Source: an uncultured archaeon
GTDB taxonomy: Archaea > Asgardarchaeota > Lokiarchaeia > Sigyniarchaeales > SOKP01
NCBI GenBank assembly: GCA_964388035.1
Contig: CAYLZE010000071.1
Span: 1-21,648 of the forward strand
Direction of reading: 5' to 3'
Length of the DNA: 21,648 bases
Positions 3,300-13,644 of this stretch are shown in pieces. The stretch's first letter is position 1. Every line of letters starts with the position of its first letter. Position numbers and translations under genes: made by a program. Under the pieces are notes generated by a model, which was not told where the DNA came from, made no database searches, and worked only from the letters and a program-made list of their open reading frames with translations.

Positions 3300-4754
3300 A
3301 TGGATGAAGAAGAACTAAATGAACAGGAAGAAGAAAAACCGAAAGTTGAAACAGAGAAAATAGATAAGAATGGTTTGATAAAAGCTAAAGATTCAAGAGA
3401 TATTATTGATCAAAATTTGCGAACATTAGAGGATAATGTAGAACAGATCTCGAAAAGCATAGAAAAAGGAAAAAGTAATACTGAAGTTGCTGAGAAAGAT
3501 GAATCCTCGGAGAAATCACTTGAAGAAAGTCAAAATATTAAAAAGCAATCAGAAGAATTGTCAAAAAAAAGTGATGAAAAAGAAGAATATTTGAAAAGTT
3601 TACAAGAATCTATCATGGACTTAGAAAAAGAATACAATAGTAAAAAAAAAGAGTTAAATAATCTTGAAGAAACCATTAATATCACAAAAGAGAGCTATAA
3701 TAATCTAAAGGAAGATTATGATAAATTATTAGAAAACAACGAACAATTAGTTAAAAATTATGAATCAAGACAAGTGGATCTAATCGTATTAAATGATGAT
3801 GTTAAAGAAAAAGTAACTCAACGTGATGAGTTGCGTCAAAACATGCAAAAAATTAAAACACAAATAGAAGACCTTGAAAAAGAAAACGATACAAGTAATG
3901 AAGAAACTAAAGCTATAAAAACCAAAATAAACAGTTTAAATGCAGAAAATGAAACGATAAAGGCATCTTTAGAAAAAAATCGCGTGGAATCAGAACAATT
4001 TAACAATTTAATAAAAGCGAAAGAAGAAGAATTAAAAAATTTAAATGATCAAATTCAAAAAAGAGAGAATAGGTTAAAAGAAGTGGAGGATACTCTTACA
4101 AAATACAAAGAAGGATTTCCCGAGATGGAAAAGCAAAAGAATACATATAATGAATTAATTGAAAAATATAAATTACAGACAAATGAATTGCAAGAAAAAG
4201 TTCTCGATTTTCAGTCAGAAATTGAAGATTTAGAAAAAGATAAAACTTCTCAGAAAGAAAAATTAAAGATTCAAGAAGATCTAATCAATGCAAATGAAGT
4301 ACAATTAAAAGAAATTAAAGAAAAAATTGAAAATTCTACGTTAGAATTTAATGAACGTGAAGAGCGATTGAAAGCAACTCGGGAAAAACTTACAGATTTA
4401 ACAGATGAATATAAAAAGCTTCAAAATGCAAAAGAAACGACGGAAAAAAGTATATTAGAAACAAGATCAACATTTCAAGATCTTAAGAAAGAACTGGATA
4501 GACAAGAAAAAGAAATCCGAGATAAGGAAAGCAGGATTCATAGATTAGAAGTATTATCAATAATTTATAGGTCATCAAAATTTTTTGGAGGAATTTTAAT
4601 CTGTGGGGCTATATTTCTACTTTTAATTGGTTTTTTATACTTCTTTGGTATTATTGATTTAGGGCAATTAAATGTTCAATTGATATTTTATATTTCTTTA
4701 ATCAGCTCAATTTTGATGCTGATAAGCGGAATTTTTCATTTGGAGAAATCTTAA
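3300..4754 (+). CDS. Long coiled-coil protein with two C-terminal transmembrane helices (paralog 1)
   Basis: E/K/Q/N-rich heptad pattern over roughly aa 95-420; no signal peptide; no Walker A motif; hydrophobic hairpin at about aa 428-480; paralogous to 9292-10728. Confidence 0.9.
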   Translation: MDEEELNEQEEEKPKVETEKIDKNGLIKAKDSRDIIDQNLRTLEDNVEQISKSIEKGKSNTEVAEKDESSEKSLEESQNIKKQSEELSKKSDEKEEYLKSLQESIMDLEKEYNSKKKELNNLEETINITKESYNNLKEDYDKLLENNEQLVKNYESRQVDLIVLNDDVKEKVTQRDELRQNMQKIKTQIEDLEKENDTSNEETKAIKTKINSLNAENETIKASLEKNRVESEQFNNLIKAKEEELKNLNDQIQKRENRLKEVEDTLTKYKEGFPEMEKQKNTYNELIEKYKLQTNELQEKVLDFQSEIEDLEKDKTSQKEKLKIQEDLINANEVQLKEIKEKIENSTLEFNEREERLKATREKLTDLTDEYKKLQNAKETTEKSILETRSTFQDLKKELDRQEKEIRDKESRIHRLEVLSIIYRSSKFFGGILICGAIFLLLIGFLYFFGIIDLGQLNVQLIFYISLISSILMLISGIFHLEKS

Positions 4755-4809
4755 GTTAGATATGTTAAATTTAATTAAAGAAATAAAAAGATGAGAGATT
4801 GGTGTAAAA

Positions 4810-6762
4810 ATTATTACTCAAAAACCAAAAGGAGTAGAAGAGATAAAAGAATATTCTTTTTCACACAAAATTTCTCTTTTTGATACTATTATTTTAGGCA
4901 TAAGTTCTACAATTGGAGCCTCTATTTTTACTTTAATTGCCCCTGCAACAAAAATAACAGGACCTTCCGTAATTTTAGCTTTTATTTTTAATTTTTTAAT
5001 AGCAATAATTATTGCAGGCAATTATGCAGAAGCCGCAAGTCTAAATCCAATTAACGGCGGTGGATTCAGCTTTATAGAAGAGGCGTATGGAGAGAAAGCT
5101 CTTTTTTTAGGATGGTTGATATGGCTTGGTAATACGAGTTATGCAGCTTTAACTTCATATGTTTTGGGAGAATATCTTCAAATATTATTTCCCCTAATCC
5201 CTCATTTAATTTTTAGTATTTTATTTCTATTACTTTTTACCTTGATTAATTGTATTGGATCAAAAATAGTGTCAACTGTTCAGAAACCTCTTGCTATAGT
5301 TTTAATGATAACACTTATCATTGCTGCTGTATATCTATTTTTAACTCCTATTGATGGAGGATTCGAACCTTTTTTCCCCAATGGGGTTATAGCGATATTT
5401 CCCGCAACGGCTCTATTATTTGTAGCATTTATTGGGTTTGAGGGCATGACAACGATATCTGCTGAGATTGAAAATCCCAAAAAGACAATCCCAAAAGCGT
5501 TATATTTAACAATTATCATTGTAGCAAGTATTTATCTCACTGTTGTTATCGCAATTTTCTTTTCTACAAATGCGGGAAGAATATCGGGAAGTTATGGAGC
5601 ATTAATAGAAGCTGTTAAAAATAACTTTTTTATATCTTTTTGCGTATTTATCGGAGCTATTTTTGCTTTACTTACTTCCTTAAGCGTAGCATTATTGGCA
5701 GCATCGCGAAATATCTATGCACTGGCTAGAGATGATTTTTTGAACAGAATATGGGGTAGTATTAATAAAAGGTATGAATCTCCAATAAAAGCTTTAATTC
5801 TAACTGCCGTTATGGCTATAATGATATTATTTACTGGAGAAGTTGAATTTATTGCATCAATTGCGGATATATCTTATATTTTTGTAGTTGCTGGTGTTGG
5901 TTTAGCAGTCCTTAAGTTTAGAAAAAATTTAAAATATGATGAACAAACATATAAAGTCTTTGGATATCCTTATACCTCATATTTATGTATAATCCTCCCA
6001 ATAATGCTAGTTTTTTTTTTAGAACCCGCAAGTCTTTTCTTAGCATTAGCATGGTTTTTGATTGGAGCAATAATATATTTATTTTTTAGCAGTCAAAAGA
6101 GGATTTTTGGAACAATATTCATGATCGCAGCTTTTCTTTTTTCTTTGATCAATATCATTTTTGGATTAATTGTTCTATCAGTGGGATTAGTGATGTATTT
6201 AATCTCCATTACAGACAGATATTCAATTTTAATTTCATTATCTGGTCTAAAATTTGTAGCTTCTCTGGGGCTTTTGGGAATTTCTTATTTAATATTAAAT
6301 AATGGAATAGTAAAATTAACTTTTTTTCAAAAAACTCCCTTATTATATGCGTTAATTTGGATTTCTATCGTTTCACTCATTACCGTTATTTTTGACATTA
6401 TCCCATTGCGCGAAATTTATTACAGAATAATAAAAAAGGTTAAAAAAGAAAAGGTAGCAATAAATGTTGAAGGAAAAAGTATTATTGATTCTAATACTTT
6501 AGGAACAAAGATTGTATATATCTTAAATTCTTTAATTGGGATTATTCAGATTATTTCGGCTTGTCTTATTTTTTTTGTAGCAATTTTAATAGGATTGGAA
6601 TTAATATCAATATTGCAAATAAGTATTGGATCTGCTATTTTATCTCAAGTAGCCACAGAATATACTTTTATCACTGTTTTAATCTTAGTAGGTTTTACTA
6701 CTCTATTAAGTGGATCTTCATTAATTTTTTTAAATTTTGAAATAAGAAGATTGAACATTTAG
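4810..6762 (+). CDS. APC-superfamily amino acid/polyamine permease with C-terminal membrane extension (paralog 1); true start lies upstream of the ORF-track start
   Basis: The frame is open from 4795 and encodes TM1-TM2 (ISLFDTIILGISSTIGASIFTL..GPSVILAF..YAEAAS..P..GGGFSFIEEAYG) before 5116. Core motifs FVAFIGFE..SAEIENPKKTIPKA and SRNIYALARD. The ATT start at 4810 is inferred. Confidence 0.85.
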   Translation: MITQKPKGVEEIKEYSFSHKISLFDTIILGISSTIGASIFTLIAPATKITGPSVILAFIFNFLIAIIIAGNYAEAASLNPINGGGFSFIEEAYGEKALFLGWLIWLGNTSYAALTSYVLGEYLQILFPLIPHLIFSILFLLLFTLINCIGSKIVSTVQKPLAIVLMITLIIAAVYLFLTPIDGGFEPFFPNGVIAIFPATALLFVAFIGFEGMTTISAEIENPKKTIPKALYLTIIIVASIYLTVVIAIFFSTNAGRISGSYGALIEAVKNNFFISFCVFIGAIFALLTSLSVALLAASRNIYALARDDFLNRIWGSINKRYESPIKALILTAVMAIMILFTGEVEFIASIADISYIFVVAGVGLAVLKFRKNLKYDEQTYKVFGYPYTSYLCIILPIMLVFFLEPASLFLALAWFLIGAIIYLFFSSQKRIFGTIFMIAAFLFSLINIIFGLIVLSVGLVMYLISITDRYSILISLSGLKFVASLGLLGISYLILNNGIVKLTFFQKTPLLYALIWISIVSLITVIFDIIPLREIYYRIIKKVKKEKVAINVEGKSIIDSNTLGTKIVYILNSLIGIIQIISACLIFFVAILIGLELISILQISIGSAILSQVATEYTFITVLILVGFTTLLSGSSLIFLNFEIRRLNI

Positions 6763-6877
6763 GATTAATTTGTCGAATTAATTTTTTAATTTAGGATTTC
6801 TTATCAATAAGAATTCATTATTGATTTATTATTAATCTCGATATATATATCAAAACTACGATTTTTTAAGAATAAAA

Positions 6878-7339
6878 TTGAGTAATCAAAATTTTGAAGA
6901 CTTGCCAAATAATCCCACGGAAGCCCAAGGAATGTTAATAAAAGCAATGTACGCAAAATTTGGAAACAAAGCATTGCCTATTATCAAGGATATTTGCCGA
7001 AAACAAGGCCATGCCTTAGGATTAAAAATAAAGAAAAAACTGCCGGACTCTAAATTATCTACCGTCGCAAATGCTTTTTCTAAAAGCTTCGATCCTGAGC
7101 ATGTTCGGGTACTCGAGATCTCTAAAGATGTCTTTCACATTCAAGGGAATAAGTGCCCTTTTGGGTTAGAAAATACCTCAAGAGAGCTATGTGAAGCTGT
7201 CATGGAAATCGACCACGAATATTTCCGTACTGCCGTGAACGACACGATTTCGCTTAATATAAAAGCAACCGTCGCCGAAGGAGATGCTTATTGCGATACG
7301 ATTTATGAACTTCATTCAAAAAATAAAGTAAGATATTAA
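6878..7339 (+). CDS. L-2-amino-thiazoline-4-carboxylate hydrolase-like / V4R-fold small ligand-binding protein
   Basis: Three-Cys pattern KCPFG..ELCEAVMEID..TVAEGDAYCD, plus N-terminal 'KFG.KALPIIKDI..KQGHALG'; TTG start. Confidence 0.65.
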   Translation: MSNQNFEDLPNNPTEAQGMLIKAMYAKFGNKALPIIKDICRKQGHALGLKIKKKLPDSKLSTVANAFSKSFDPEHVRVLEISKDVFHIQGNKCPFGLENTSRELCEAVMEIDHEYFRTAVNDTISLNIKATVAEGDAYCDTIYELHSKNKVRY

Positions 7340-7340
7340 G

Positions 7341-9257
7341 TTAAACCCCAATTTTTTTGATTTCTCTATTGATATAAAGAGAAACCAACCCGCTTAATGT
7401 GAGAAATAAGGCATATATTCCAAGTATTAAGAGAAACAAGTATTCACTCGTTCCTTCCAAGAGGAGGATGCTTCCGAATTGTATTTGTTCAATAGAAATT
7501 ACCCCGAAACTAAATGTTAAAATAATAATGACAAGAATTACGGGACATGCCAATTCTATTATTCCTAAAAGAAGATCTATATAGTAGATGATCTTTCGTT
7601 CTGTTTTATTAAGTTCGATAATTTGAGCATTCCCTAATGACATGGCAACTTTATCTTTTTGCATTTTTTTAATAAAGAAAAAGATAATTTGATTAAGGGG
7701 GACAATATCGAAAAGAATCGTAATGAATGTAAAAATTACGATGAAGATGACCAATCGCAACAAAAAGCTTGAAAAATAAACGTTAAATCCCAGAACTGGG
7801 GTGCTTAATACACTCAAATTATTTAAAATCAGAATAAAAATACCTACAGCAAGAGCAAAGAAGAATTTTATTCCAGCAAGGGTTAAGACGATAGAGGATC
7901 GATCCGCAATTGTTATTAAATAGTAGGTCATTCCAATAGTAAAAACCAGCATTCCAAACAACACCGCCGTAAAATTTAACGTGAATGCTAAAATCAAGCA
8001 CATTATCCCTACACCGATGGGCAAGTAAGGAAAAAATGGCGCTTTAAAGGGACGATCTAGCTTTTTACGGTTATATCTTAAGCTCACAGCCGCAATATTC
8101 ACAAATGCTAACCCTATAAAATAAATAAAAGTAGTCATCTCTGCTGCAAAACCAACATTGGTAAAAAAAGTTAAAATTATGCATAACGCAACCGTTAATA
8201 ACAAAGCATAGGTTGGAACGTCTGTTTTTTGATTCACTTTTCTAAAAATTTTAGGGACGTAATGATCACGGGCTAATGCGTGGAAAATGCTCCCTGCAGA
8301 ACTTAAAGCAGCATTCATGGACACTAACGTGGCAAGAATAGCGGCAATTACCATTACATAAAAACCGATAGGACCCAAGATTTCACCAGAAATTTCAGCT
8401 ATTAAAATTTCATGTCCCGATAAATTCGCAGAAATTTCTCCCAAATTTAGCAAAACAGCAGATGTTACTCCAATATAAATTAATAAGGTTATGAGAATAG
8501 CCAATAAATTTACCTTCGGAATATTTTTTGATGGATTTCGTAAATCAGAATTAAAATACGCTAAATTAGAGGTTATGCTGGTAAAAAATATGAATAAAGC
8601 GGCAAACATTTGAATTACTCCAAAAAAATTCGTTCCCGAGAAAAAAAATTGGGGTTTATATCCCTCAGGGTTTGTAATGGGAGCTATAAATACACCCAAA
8701 ATAAAGAAGAAAGAAAAGAATATAACTAGAATGATGGTTGCTCGAATTAATACTTTCGATCCCCCTTTAGTTGTAAGGAGAACGATGGTACTAATGAAAA
8801 TTATGGATAGAAAAGCGAGAAAAAATGAGTATTCAGAAGAAAAAGAAAATATGGAATTAATAACTAAGGCAAATGTTAACGCGGAAAAAGTACATGAAGC
8901 TACATTGGCCAACCACAGGAAAAAACCGATGACAAAAGCCAGAAAACCCCCAATTCCTTCCTTGGTAAAGTTATAAGCCCCCCCAGCAATAGGCAAGCTG
9001 GTTTCAAGTTCAGAATAATTCAATGCGGTGAAGAATATTAGTACCCCTCCAAGAATTAAACTAATCAATACACCAGGTCCCGCAATGTCGATTCCTCCGC
9101 CGAGAAGTATAAAGATGGAACCACCTACACCGCAACCTATGCCGTATAATACTCCACTTGCTATTCCAAATGGTTTATGGGGCTTCTTTTTTTCAACTTC
9201 AGTCTCAGTTTCAGGCAATGTGGTATCCTCAATTTTACTATAATTTACTTTATTCAA
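7341..9257 (-). CDS. APC-superfamily permease with C-terminal membrane extension (paralog 2)
   Basis: GIGCGVGGSIFIL, AGPGVLISL, YSELETSLPIAGGAYNF, NPSKNIPK, ALARDHYVP, RPFKAPFFPYLP; TTG start. Confidence 0.9.
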   Translation of the reverse strand: MNKVNYSKIEDTTLPETETEVEKKKPHKPFGIASGVLYGIGCGVGGSIFILLGGGIDIAGPGVLISLILGGVLIFFTALNYSELETSLPIAGGAYNFTKEGIGGFLAFVIGFFLWLANVASCTFSALTFALVINSIFSFSSEYSFFLAFLSIIFISTIVLLTTKGGSKVLIRATIILVIFFSFFFILGVFIAPITNPEGYKPQFFFSGTNFFGVIQMFAALFIFFTSITSNLAYFNSDLRNPSKNIPKVNLLAILITLLIYIGVTSAVLLNLGEISANLSGHEILIAEISGEILGPIGFYVMVIAAILATLVSMNAALSSAGSIFHALARDHYVPKIFRKVNQKTDVPTYALLLTVALCIILTFFTNVGFAAEMTTFIYFIGLAFVNIAAVSLRYNRKKLDRPFKAPFFPYLPIGVGIMCLILAFTLNFTAVLFGMLVFTIGMTYYLITIADRSSIVLTLAGIKFFFALAVGIFILILNNLSVLSTPVLGFNVYFSSFLLRLVIFIVIFTFITILFDIVPLNQIIFFFIKKMQKDKVAMSLGNAQIIELNKTERKIIYYIDLLLGIIELACPVILVIIILTFSFGVISIEQIQFGSILLLEGTSEYLFLLILGIYALFLTLSGLVSLYINREIKKIGV

Positions 9258-9291
9258 TAAAAATAGTAATTTTAAAAGTTAAAGACGAATT

Positions 9292-10728
9292 CTAACTCTT
9301 TTCGAGATGGAAGACACCCGAAATAATAGAGAAAATGCCTCCAATTAGGGTAATGACGATGGCTAATGTGTAATTCGTTTGATTTAAATTAATAAAACCA
9401 GAAATATATCCAATGCTCAATATCAGGAAAAAGATTCCAACAGCAATTAATATTCCACCAAAAAATTTAGACGCTTTATATATGAGAGAGAGTACTTCTA
9501 ATCGATTGATACGGCTTTCTTTATCACGTATTTCTTTTTCCTGTCCTTGTAATTCCGTTTTGAGTTTTTGAAATAATATTTTTGAATCAGTTATGCTTGT
9601 TTCAATGACTTCTTTTGCATTTTCAAGTTTTTCGTATTCTTCTTCCAACTGTTCATATTTTTCAGTAAGACTCGTAAGTCTTTCCTCCCTTTCTTGATAT
9701 TCTTTATTTGAGATCTCGATATTTGTCTTTAATTCCTCTATTCTTTTTTCATTGACTTCTATTTTCTTTTCTTCAGTCGTAATTTCCTCTTTTAAGGCGT
9801 CATGGGTTTCATTTAATTTTTGAATGCGGGATTCTATTTCGATGGCCAGTTGTTGCTTTTCAGTTAATTGAAACTTGTATTTTTCTAACAATTCTTCATA
9901 AGTCTTTGCCTTTTCCTTCATTTCAGGAAATCCTTCTTTGAATTCTTTAATTTGATTTTCCGTTTCCTTTAATCGTAATTCTTTTTTTTCTAATTGCTCA
10001 TTCAGGAGTTTTAATTCATCCTCTTTAGCATGAATCAAGGTATTGGAATGATCCAGTTCTAGTTTATTTTTTTCGACGGTAAGTTTCAAGGTTTCATTTT
10101 CGGTTCTGAAACTATTAATTTTCTTCTCAAGCATTTTTAACTCCTCATTCTGAGATTCTATCTTTCCTTTCTCTTCCCGAATTTGTTCATTTAACTTCGC
10201 AAGTTCTTCTCGTAATTCGTCTTTTTCCTGTACCTTCTCTTTGACACTATCCGTGAGAACTATGAGATCCACTTGCCTTGATTCATAAGATTTAATCAAT
10301 TGCTCATTATTCTTGATAAGCTCCTTATAATCCTCTTCTAAAGTTTCCATGCTTTGCTTTGTAATCTTTAAACTTTCCTCTAAAGTATTTAGTTCTTCAT
10401 TTTTCCGTACATATTTATCGTTGAGGGAATTAATATTGTCTTCTAAAGCTTTTTTAAAATTATCTAATTCTTCAATCTTCTTTTCTAAGGCTTCCAGTTC
10501 TTTTTGAGCTTCTTGGACTTCTTCATCAATCTCTTCTTTTGCTTTCTTTTCCTTTTCCTTTTTAGCGGGTTCTTTTTCGATTTCTTCCACGCTATTTTCG
10601 AATGTTCGCAGCTTTTTATCTATGAGATCTCTAGAATCTTTTGCTTTAGTTAAAAGCTCTCTGTTCACCTTATCATCTTCTTTCTCCGACTTTGCTGCTT
10701 TCTCCTCGTCTTTAATTTCTTCTGACAT
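9292..10728 (-). CDS. Long coiled-coil protein with two C-terminal transmembrane helices (paralog 2)
   Basis: Shares KAKDSRD, YESRQVDLIVL, KEGFPEM, EREERL, QEKEIRDKESRI.RLEVLS, SKFFGGILI and FHLEKS* with 3300-4754. Confidence 0.9.
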   Translation of the reverse strand: MSEEIKDEEKAAKSEKEDDKVNRELLTKAKDSRDLIDKKLRTFENSVEEIEKEPAKKEKEKKAKEEIDEEVQEAQKELEALEKKIEELDNFKKALEDNINSLNDKYVRKNEELNTLEESLKITKQSMETLEEDYKELIKNNEQLIKSYESRQVDLIVLTDSVKEKVQEKDELREELAKLNEQIREEKGKIESQNEELKMLEKKINSFRTENETLKLTVEKNKLELDHSNTLIHAKEDELKLLNEQLEKKELRLKETENQIKEFKEGFPEMKEKAKTYEELLEKYKFQLTEKQQLAIEIESRIQKLNETHDALKEEITTEEKKIEVNEKRIEELKTNIEISNKEYQEREERLTSLTEKYEQLEEEYEKLENAKEVIETSITDSKILFQKLKTELQGQEKEIRDKESRINRLEVLSLIYKASKFFGGILIAVGIFFLILSIGYISGFINLNQTNYTLAIVITLIGGIFSIISGVFHLEKS

Positions 10729-12156: not shown

Positions 12157-13644
12157 TCATTGAGAATTCTCTTTCAGCAATTTTATCTTAATGAAGAGAT
12201 TAAAAGTTCTTGGCCCAAAAGTGACGAGCACGTAGAATTGCTCCCTACTTCCAATTTCTAATTTACGATTTACAATAGGAAGTATCATTTGCTTCGTACC
12301 ATACGTGCTAGCTAATTCATGATCATAATGATTAAAATCGGCCCTATTTTCTAAAGCTCTTACGGTATGTAAAAAGTTTTCGGAACCATATTTTGAGATT
12401 TCTGCAAATTTATAATGCAAGTCCAAATAATTTCCCCACTCATGTTCATTGTTTATGAATGTCGTCGTGGTGTGGTATGTTCTCATGAACAATTCCCCGT
12501 GTTTAAGGGAGGGATACTTTTCCAAAGCTTCATTTAACTGTGTTTTAATAATATCTGTTAAAAACAATAATTGAGTTATGCTATAACTTCTTAATTTAAG
12601 TTGATAAAGCAAATTGACTTCGTTTTCATTTTCACTTGTAGGTAGATGTTTAACTTCCAATAATGTTTTATATAATTCTAAATCTTTCACGAGGGGAGTA
12701 AAAATTGAGGGACTTACTCGATTCACGTTTCTAAACATCCAGGTTCTTAATAGCATTTTCTGAGAAAAAGCTAATTGTTCGGAAGCTTCTAAAAAACCTC
12801 TCATCATTTGGGATATCTCTAAAGTAGGTGTAGCACTTCCAACTTGCATTTTATACCAGGCATTTTGAATAAATCCTTTTGTTTTAAAGAGGGTATTAAA
12901 AAGGTCAGTTGGAGTCATTCCTCCTAAACAACGCGGGTCCAATTCCAGCCAGGCGTTATTGAAGGTTTTCAATAATTGATAATATGAACGATAATCTCCA
13001 GAAATATCTAACCCACTCAAGATGAATATATTCTGTGGATGCGTTGAAATTAAGGTTTTCAATTCTGTAATTCCAGTTCTTTCAGTATAAATTTGAGGCA
13101 AATACGTATTACCTAAATCAATTTTAATGAAATATTTTTTTTGCTGGCAATGAATAAGGAAGTCATGAAAAAGGTTATCATTGGTATCGGTTAGGTCAAT
13201 ATCTGCTTGAGACGGGTATAGGACGATACCTGCAACGGGAATCTCTTTTTCCTGGCTCTTTAATTTTTCAAGGGTATCCGGGTTTCTTGGATCAAATGAC
13301 AAAATACCCTTGAATAAATTTTTATCCTTGGAAACCACGTTGATAACATCCTCATTATCAATTCCATGATCCTTGTTGAGTTCCATTCCCTGTATTAATG
13401 CGATTTGAATATCGGAACATTCGAATTCCAGTTTAACATCCTCTAACGTTATTTTCCTGCAATAAAAATAATTCCTTCCCTCTTGATTCTTCATGGATAA
13501 GAGTTTTTTCAGTTTCTCGGACATTTCAATATCCTCAAAAATAGGCCACACGAGGGAATCTACTCTTCCATAATAAAAAGCATTGGCATACTCATTTCCA
13601 AAAATGCACTTAAAATCAGGCTGATATAACCTTTCTTCTGACAT
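12157..13644 (-). CDS. Fusion protein: degenerate amidohydrolase_2-like TIM barrel + C-terminal YjbQ/UPF0047 domain
   Basis: C-terminal HTTTTFINNE..LH..FLH..NHYDHELASTYG...LPIVNRKLEIGSREQ..FGPR follows the YjbQ pattern. N-terminal FKGILSFDP, GIVLYP, HPQNIFIL, NAWLELD and VGSATP follow amidohydrolase_2 strand order. Confidence 0.7.
   Translation of the reverse strand: MSEERLYQPDFKCIFGNEYANAFYYGRVDSLVWPIFEDIEMSEKLKKLLSMKNQEGRNYFYCRKITLEDVKLEFECSDIQIALIQGMELNKDHGIDNEDVINVVSKDKNLFKGILSFDPRNPDTLEKLKSQEKEIPVAGIVLYPSQADIDLTDTNDNLFHDFLIHCQQKKYFIKIDLGNTYLPQIYTERTGITELKTLISTHPQNIFILSGLDISGDYRSYYQLLKTFNNAWLELDPRCLGGMTPTDLFNTLFKTKGFIQNAWYKMQVGSATPTLEISQMMRGFLEASEQLAFSQKMLLRTWMFRNVNRVSPSIFTPLVKDLELYKTLLEVKHLPTSENENEVNLLYQLKLRSYSITQLLFLTDIIKTQLNEALEKYPSLKHGELFMRTYHTTTTFINNEHEWGNYLDLHYKFAEISKYGSENFLHTVRALENRADFNHYDHELASTYGTKQMILPIVNRKLEIGSREQFYVLVTFGPRTFNLFIKIKLLKENSQ

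Follow-up and report, generated by a model that had tools for sequence, protein, structure and literature searches.

The window analyzed here is a 21,648 bp stretch of contig C71 (CAYLZE010000071.1) in a 5.5 Mb genome of the Promethearchaeota (Lokiarchaeia), the named relatives of which are also Promethearchaeota. It contains two copies of a two-gene module, each with a gene for a coiled-coil protein ending in a transmembrane (TM) hairpin (the rod) and a gene for an APC permease with a C-terminal membrane extension, and it is the association of these two genes that we describe. The locus is organized as rod1, APC1, a small V4R-like gene, APC2, and rod2, with the first three genes transcribed rightwards and the last two leftwards; this order and the coordinates, proposed in a first-pass annotation of the DNA, were confirmed by a check of the open reading frames (ORFs). 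Module 1 comprises rod1 (3300-4754, + strand; 484 aa) and the APC1 frame (4795-6762, + strand; 655 codons), coding for a type-1 extended permease, and module 2 comprises rod2 (9292-10728, - strand; 478 aa) and APC2 (7341-9257, - strand; 638 aa), a type-2 extended permease. Each rod gene is shortly upstream of its permease gene, as annotated, with gaps of 40-55 bp in module 1 and 34 bp in module 2.

Between the modules the rods share 48% and the permeases about 30% amino acid identity, and the codons previously quoted for the YESRQVDLIVL block in both modules are exact. Synonymous sites are saturated (pS 0.79, dN 0.42) and the locus is therefore not an assembly fold-back; every gene junction is also bridged by contigs that cover the stretch, when those of four public runs from four studies are taken together. 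The APC1 frame has no ATG, GTG or TTG codon before position 5116 (its first 107 codons), a rare feature seen in 8 of the 2241 long ORFs in the genome. A 5' frameshift is not supported, because no indel lies inside the frame in any of the four public runs; the sole indel close by, a deletion of 2 bases at 4790, precedes the frame and occurs in a single contig of depth 2. Most of the APC1 strain variants listed (14 of 17, by hand count) are at third codon positions, and APC1 is likeliest a working gene that probably starts at an ATT codon (4810 or 4813) preceded by a GGTG motif. The earlier description of both modules as intact and under selection holds. A scan with bacterial promoter and terminator models was uninformative for this archaeal host, with 49 promoter-like sites compared to 39 ± 7 by chance.

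Both rods have two predicted C-terminal TM helices (4581-4736, + strand, in rod1; 9310-9465, - strand, in rod2), forming a hairpin with a GG...SG motif (GG...SGxxH in rod1), which is the anchor that defines the rod family. A single unbroken heptad register extends over about residues 58-395, and since Ile occupies the a positions and Leu the d positions, general coiled-coil rules suggest that it probably forms a parallel dimer in the cytoplasm, about 50 nm in length. The N-terminal tip carries a KxxRDxxD motif (K30-D37 in rod1; 3387-3410, + strand), of which K30 and R33 are invariant in 21 long rods, with the RD core recognizable in short ones. The rod model is all-helical with a weak segment at residues 209-217, across which the heptad phase is unchanged, so that an SMC-like fold-back is not favored; the split ABC ATPase head that flanks the coil in SMC and Rad50 proteins is likewise absent, with no Walker motifs seen and no Pfam ATPase match.

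No Pfam family, golgin and TMCC families included, matches the rods at cut-off; there are only sub-threshold matches to generic coiled-coil and TM families, and coiled coils defeat such searches. A search of 1.84 billion proteins with a profile of the rod anchor yielded only 46 clusters, part of them generic coils, and the ESM Atlas matches are solely unnamed Promethearchaeota clusters. Literature searches, with most subscription papers outside their coverage, identified no paper on the rod or these Asgard genes. We note that anchor-less rod copies of 320-334 aa are present in MK-D1 (L044:7461-8420) and in genome G060 (L043:7717-8720), and the tree groups them with the rods of this family. These copies are head-to-head with a DUF2061 gene, and DUF2061 also follows the module or a lone rod at loci L025, L050, L053, and L061. 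A second family of 340-352 aa proteins (G012:C304, G236:C81, G222:C7, G020:C65, and others) weakly matches the rod-anchor profile (E about 1e-6).

The permeases APC1 and APC2 match Pfam family AA_permease_2 (143 and 125 bits; cut-off 27), and the AlphaFold model of APC2 has a mean pLDDT (predicted local distance difference test) of 86. Residues 23-451 of this model align with GkApcT (PDB 5OQT, 6F34), its best structural match, with Z 45.3 and a root mean square deviation of 2.4 over 412 aligned residues, and SLC7 light chains are also among the high matches. The Pfam matches and the APC2 model both indicate a LeuT-type APC core of 10+2 TM helices, and the glycine-rich motif of the unwound TM1 is present (GISSTIGASIF in APC1, GIGCGVGGSIF in APC2) and aligns with that of GkApcT and CAT4. 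GkApcT and MjApcT (3GIA), prokaryotic homologues of the SLC7 CAT proteins, share the 12-TM core with the permeases here at 20-23% identity but end after TM12, whereas four or more TM helices are added here. We place APC1 and APC2 in the ApcT/CAT branch (APC superfamily), as putative amino acid permeases with added C-terminal TM hairpins. The same genome encodes three further APC permeases.

The APC1 extension (6157-6759, + strand) has two hairpins, and there is a further 40-residue hydrophobic insertion after TM12. APC2 has 16 predicted TM helices, the last four of which lie in its extension (residues 451-638; 7344-7907, - strand) and are modeled as a separate helical bundle (residues 451-636), together with two short beta-hairpins. 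The bundle, taken within the full-length model, matches tetraspan-like structures with Z scores of 11-13, which are in the generic range for helical bundles. This tail of four hydrophobic helices is not a soluble C-terminal regulatory domain of the USP, TrkA, PTS EIIA or KimA type, and Atlas clusters with soluble-tailed permeases align essentially to the core only. The extension is covered by no Pfam family, and the same literature searches identified no paper on it. Tandem or additional extended permeases with no rod gene of their own are seen at L051:39-5808 (G029), L073 (G022), and L072 (G003).

The association of rod and permease is evident in the family to which this genome belongs (134 genomes), where profile searches identify the rod anchor in 119 genomes and the extension in 123. 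The rod gene is directly before the extended permease in 112 of the 114 genomes that can be judged (hand count), with five more split by contig ends; the rod has many different upstream neighbors, whereas the permease on its other side is constant. In two other families of the order, rod and permease are adjacent in 2/2. Related genomes are not independent, and we therefore claim no P-value; the case is one of persistence.

Using broader profiles, strong matches to both the rod and the extension are found in the same nine genomes of other Asgard classes, and the genes are adjacent in all nine. The rods of these genomes are short (frames of 99-266 codons) and have the same hairpin as the long rods; the rod precedes the permease in one family and follows it in two, one of which is Thorarchaeota. 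The rod was detected in 4 of 86 Thorarchaeota genomes, and the extension, scored in 70, in those same four. Bathyarchaeia have mini-rods of 87-118 aa that match the rod anchor (HHalign 97%), and a profile built exclusively from these places rod2 first of 5895 ORFs. Mini-rods are present in 13 of 201 Bathyarchaeia genomes, and in 8 of the 13 they are next to a gene for a permease whose extension has two helices. At Bathyarchaeia loci where two paralogous permeases are present, each has its own mini-rod, and there are also free hairpin genes of 75-77 aa. One of these, the 75-aa hairpin found next to Bathyarchaeia permeases, is similar to the final hairpin of the Asgard extension (21 bits compared to 12.9 for the best background, in one direction only), a hint that a free hairpin may have been fused to the Asgard permeases. 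Loci of the Bathyarchaeia type (L112:630-5410, L106, L105:4089-6882) contain two divergent permeases with mini-rods and either free TM hairpins of 75 and 77 aa or a 158-aa fusion, and L105 additionally encodes a 127-aa chimera, in which a permease N-terminus is joined to a hairpin.

The rod-permease pair, of which there are over 130 examples, is therefore conserved in many Asgard and some Bathyarchaeia archaea, and we regard it as real and old because it persists through swaps of gene order, changes of length, patchy presence, and into a second phylum. The first-pass annotation had proposed such a pair, for which these profile searches provide the co-occurrence and adjacency, but took a rod of ~400 aa as its essence. 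The conserved rod core is instead the TM hairpin and its juxtamembrane coil, the coiled coil as a whole varying in length, and shorter partners (~100-250 aa) are found elsewhere with permeases of the same kind. The partner family and the permease extension, across Asgard classes and Bathyarchaeia, are apparently undescribed; the APC core and the principle of an accessory subunit are known.

Several observations weigh against the two proteins working as a unit. The basis of the partnership is genomic and comes from related genomes. Two genomes of the window's family are exceptions, one with the genes apart and one (92% complete) with a rod and no extended permease found, and some genomes have two extended permeases per rod. 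One Asgard genome (73% complete) has the extension with no rod detected, and no permease lies within 1.5 kb of 5 of the 13 mini-rods in Bathyarchaeia. That the rod hairpin was copied from the final hairpin of the extension (HHalign 58-85%) is a hint at most, as the match ranks 33 in a genome-wide control and the reciprocal Bathyarchaeia test failed. In the family of MK-D1, rod and permease are unlinked (0/11 adjacent).

The MK-D1 family is informative in other respects, as the same 11 of its 14 genomes hold both the rod and the extension, gain and loss of the two coinciding even without linkage, and both cultured strains, MK-D1 and Loki-B35, carry the two genes unlinked. In MK-D1 the rod anchor is encoded at C1:1013764-1014147 and the permease extension at C1:4315942-4316583. 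A gene coding for a TPR-like protein is directly downstream of the rod in 9/9 loci of the family, and two of the three genomes lacking the pair retain this usual neighbor with no rod beside it. The TPR-like protein (~620 aa, no assigned family; L049:8525-10456 and eight other loci of the family) has a homologue at G000:C47:31600-33200, and is a candidate ligand of the rod tip. One of these two genomes (G051) has a 986-aa APC permease of the MK-D1 type (L063:1187-4147) with no extension and a fused charged, partly coiled tail of ~480 residues; no rod was found in that genome.

This unlinked arrangement, with a different constant neighbor, is as would be expected if the rod were an independent tether or shape-determining protein, and the permease a long-standing neighbor or co-regulated gene. 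Tail-anchored golgins and the TMCC/TEX28 proteins have a long coiled coil and a C-terminal anchor, which in TMCC ends in two TM helices, and the rod shares this layout with its coil of about 50 nm; moreover, copies without an anchor exist, and a Ras-family GTPase is near the rod in about half of 20 named loci. Nonetheless, adjacency to the permease outlasts order swaps, a fivefold change in rod length and a change of phylum, and the patchy lineages hold both genes or neither. The Ras-family neighbor is absent from this window and from most other lineages, the golgin and TMCC Pfam families score below cut-off, and the rod family, unlike golgins and TMCC, shrinks to about 100 aa and is tied to a permease gene. 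We thus consider a free-standing tether rather unlikely; a golgin-like rod in Asgard archaea would more simply be the descendant of a permease companion of roughly 100 residues, found also in Bathyarchaeia, and so not evidence of a eukaryote-type tether. In part of the family, at L022:5637-7580 and about ten related loci, the Ras/Rab-family GTPase is two to three genes upstream of the rod and is accompanied by an apolipoprotein-like helical protein; this window and most other lineages lack the arrangement.

That rod and permease are functionally coupled in some way is likely, and our preferred reading, with a probability of about 0.55, is that they form a two-gene module of an extended APC permease and a dedicated accessory membrane subunit, the two being predicted from gene content and order to be in contact. 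A model of APC2 in complex with the C-terminal 110 residues of rod2 scored 0.20 against a mark of 0.32, and is counted neither for nor against binding. The hairpin of the partner would pack against the permease, most likely on the extension, and the partner may support permease assembly, stability, or oligomerization, for example with a dimeric coil clamping two permeases together. In Lokiarchaeia the coil would then have been lengthened to at least 48 heptads (about 50 nm and up), holding the RD tip motif far from the membrane and adding a spacer or scaffold role to the older one in assembly.

An accessory membrane subunit of an APC permease has a close parallel in the SLC7/SLC3 transporters (LAT1-4F2hc and b0,+AT-rBAT), and subunits of this type are mostly known from animals. 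The SLC3 heavy chain, a glycoprotein, crosses the membrane once and has a glycosidase-like domain outside the cell; the rod, in contrast, is all-helical, with a TM hairpin, a putatively cytoplasmic coiled coil and no glycosidase-like Pfam domain, and no sequence relation was found. An archaeal version without relation to these, and from the lineage nearest to eukaryotes, would reveal how heteromers of this kind come about. To our knowledge, GkApcT and MjApcT have no known native partner gene. The MgtS protein that the first-pass annotation listed as a partner of GkApcT is an E. coli host protein that co-purified and is present in the crystal, rather than a native subunit (PMC5803215). Its statement that prokaryotic APC permeases usually act alone or carry soluble tails also requires revision, since in the Bacillus GerA receptor the APC-fold protein GerAB senses an amino acid and works with the co-encoded GerAA and GerAC (PMC8617281), and E. 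coli LysP contacts and regulates CadC within the membrane (PMC6320335). The pair here is similar to GerA in having an APC-fold protein with a co-encoded partner, but the partner is a coiled-coil hairpin protein, and no gene like those for the GerAA channel and the GerAC lipoprotein is among the locus genes scanned with Pfam. CadC is a single-pass DNA-binding activator, whereas the rod has no DNA-binding or enzymatic domain.

Some of these parallels are sensory, and a nutrient sensor (transceptor), in which the permease binds an amino acid and signals via the rod, much as GerAB does via GerAA and LysP via CadC, and the common type-2 permease may no longer transport, is an alternative we regard as unlikely. 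It draws on a difference in TM6: the acidic motif is intact as IGFE in APC1 and all of its type-1 relatives, but the 18 type-2 permeases aligned from the window's family (APC2 and 17 relatives) all have TSITSN or a similar sequence in place of GF(E/D), which is also missing from one divergent relative. APC2 thus has no equivalent of Asp237, the TM6-motif residue required for transport by GkApcT (PMC5803215). An unbroken coil leading to a conserved tip motif could relay a signal, and the three other APC permeases of the genome could serve uptake. Yet the type-1, Thorarchaeota, and other-class permeases retain GFE and still carry the partner, the Bathyarchaeia partners are nearly coil-free, the pair is not accompanied by a kinase, regulator or channel gene, and the altered TM6 may merely reflect a different substrate. 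If type-2 permeases do sense, they would be candidate amino acid transceptors in Asgard archaea, and amino acids and peptides are growth substrates of cultured Lokiarchaeia (PMC11316595, PMC9834061). More speculatively, the module could be an archaeal heteromeric amino acid transporter/sensor, with an APC permease ringed by related TM hairpins, a Lokiarchaeia rod of 50-100 nm linking uptake or sensing to membrane organization (e.g. cell protrusions), and the dominant permease type as a non-transporting sensor; we consider this combination quite unlikely.

The mirror-image arrangement is a peculiarity of this genome, which is the only one of 400 Asgard genomes with two anchored rods; the congeneric genome has module 2 only. 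Module 2 is the native locus copy, flanked by neighbors conserved in relatives, and its sister in the tree is the one module that the congeneric genome has. APC1 groups apart, in a deep type-1 clade (in a quick tree with long branches and no clade test), and the proportion of G+C at third codon positions (GC3) is 0.19 in both module-1 genes, in the lowest 0.3% of long ORFs, compared to 0.30-0.31 in their module-2 counterparts. In relatives, type-1 and type-2 permeases substitute for each other at the same locus. The trees, in the quick version for APC, and GC3 speak against a local inverted duplication. Of the earlier proposal of an old duplication rather than a fold-back, the exclusion of a fold-back survives. 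The simplest reading is that module 1 was laterally acquired and ended up tail-to-tail with module 2, the native type-2 copy; the mirror layout would then be fortuitous, arising because this genome has an additional and probably foreign module. Between positions 1 and 2884, beside module 1, is a PIN-domain toxin-antitoxin region with a PIN/DUF3368-like gene (836-1369), a small partner (~1379-1615), and a PIN-like fragment (77-493), and a direct repeat (1-228 and 2656-2884; 79-86%), about 2656 bp apart, also flanks module 1; these may mark an island that brought the module.

The small gene between the modules (6878-7339, + strand; 153 aa) is V4R/ATC-hydrolase-like, scoring 26.7 bits with the Pfam family ATC_hydrolase, just under its cut-off of 28.1. 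Homologues are present in 68 of the 134 genomes of the family and never on the contig that carries the rod (0/68); the gene is therefore a passenger and outside the module, contrary to its earlier inclusion. The first-pass annotation had further envisaged the mirror locus as a single system, possibly with both paralogue pairs and the V4R-like protein in one heteromeric complex. Selection on both intact modules in this organism and the shared orientation of the small gene with module 1 would fit such a complex, but with two anchored rods in one genome only of 400, permease types that replace each other in relatives, an unlinked V4R-like gene and a compositionally foreign module 1, we consider it highly improbable.

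Farther downstream in the window, a leftwards-transcribed gene (12157-13644, - strand) codes for a protein of 495 aa that ends in a UPF0047 (YjbQ) domain; its N-terminal part is unassigned and appears amidohydrolase-like by eye, and this gene is kept near the rod in 15 loci.

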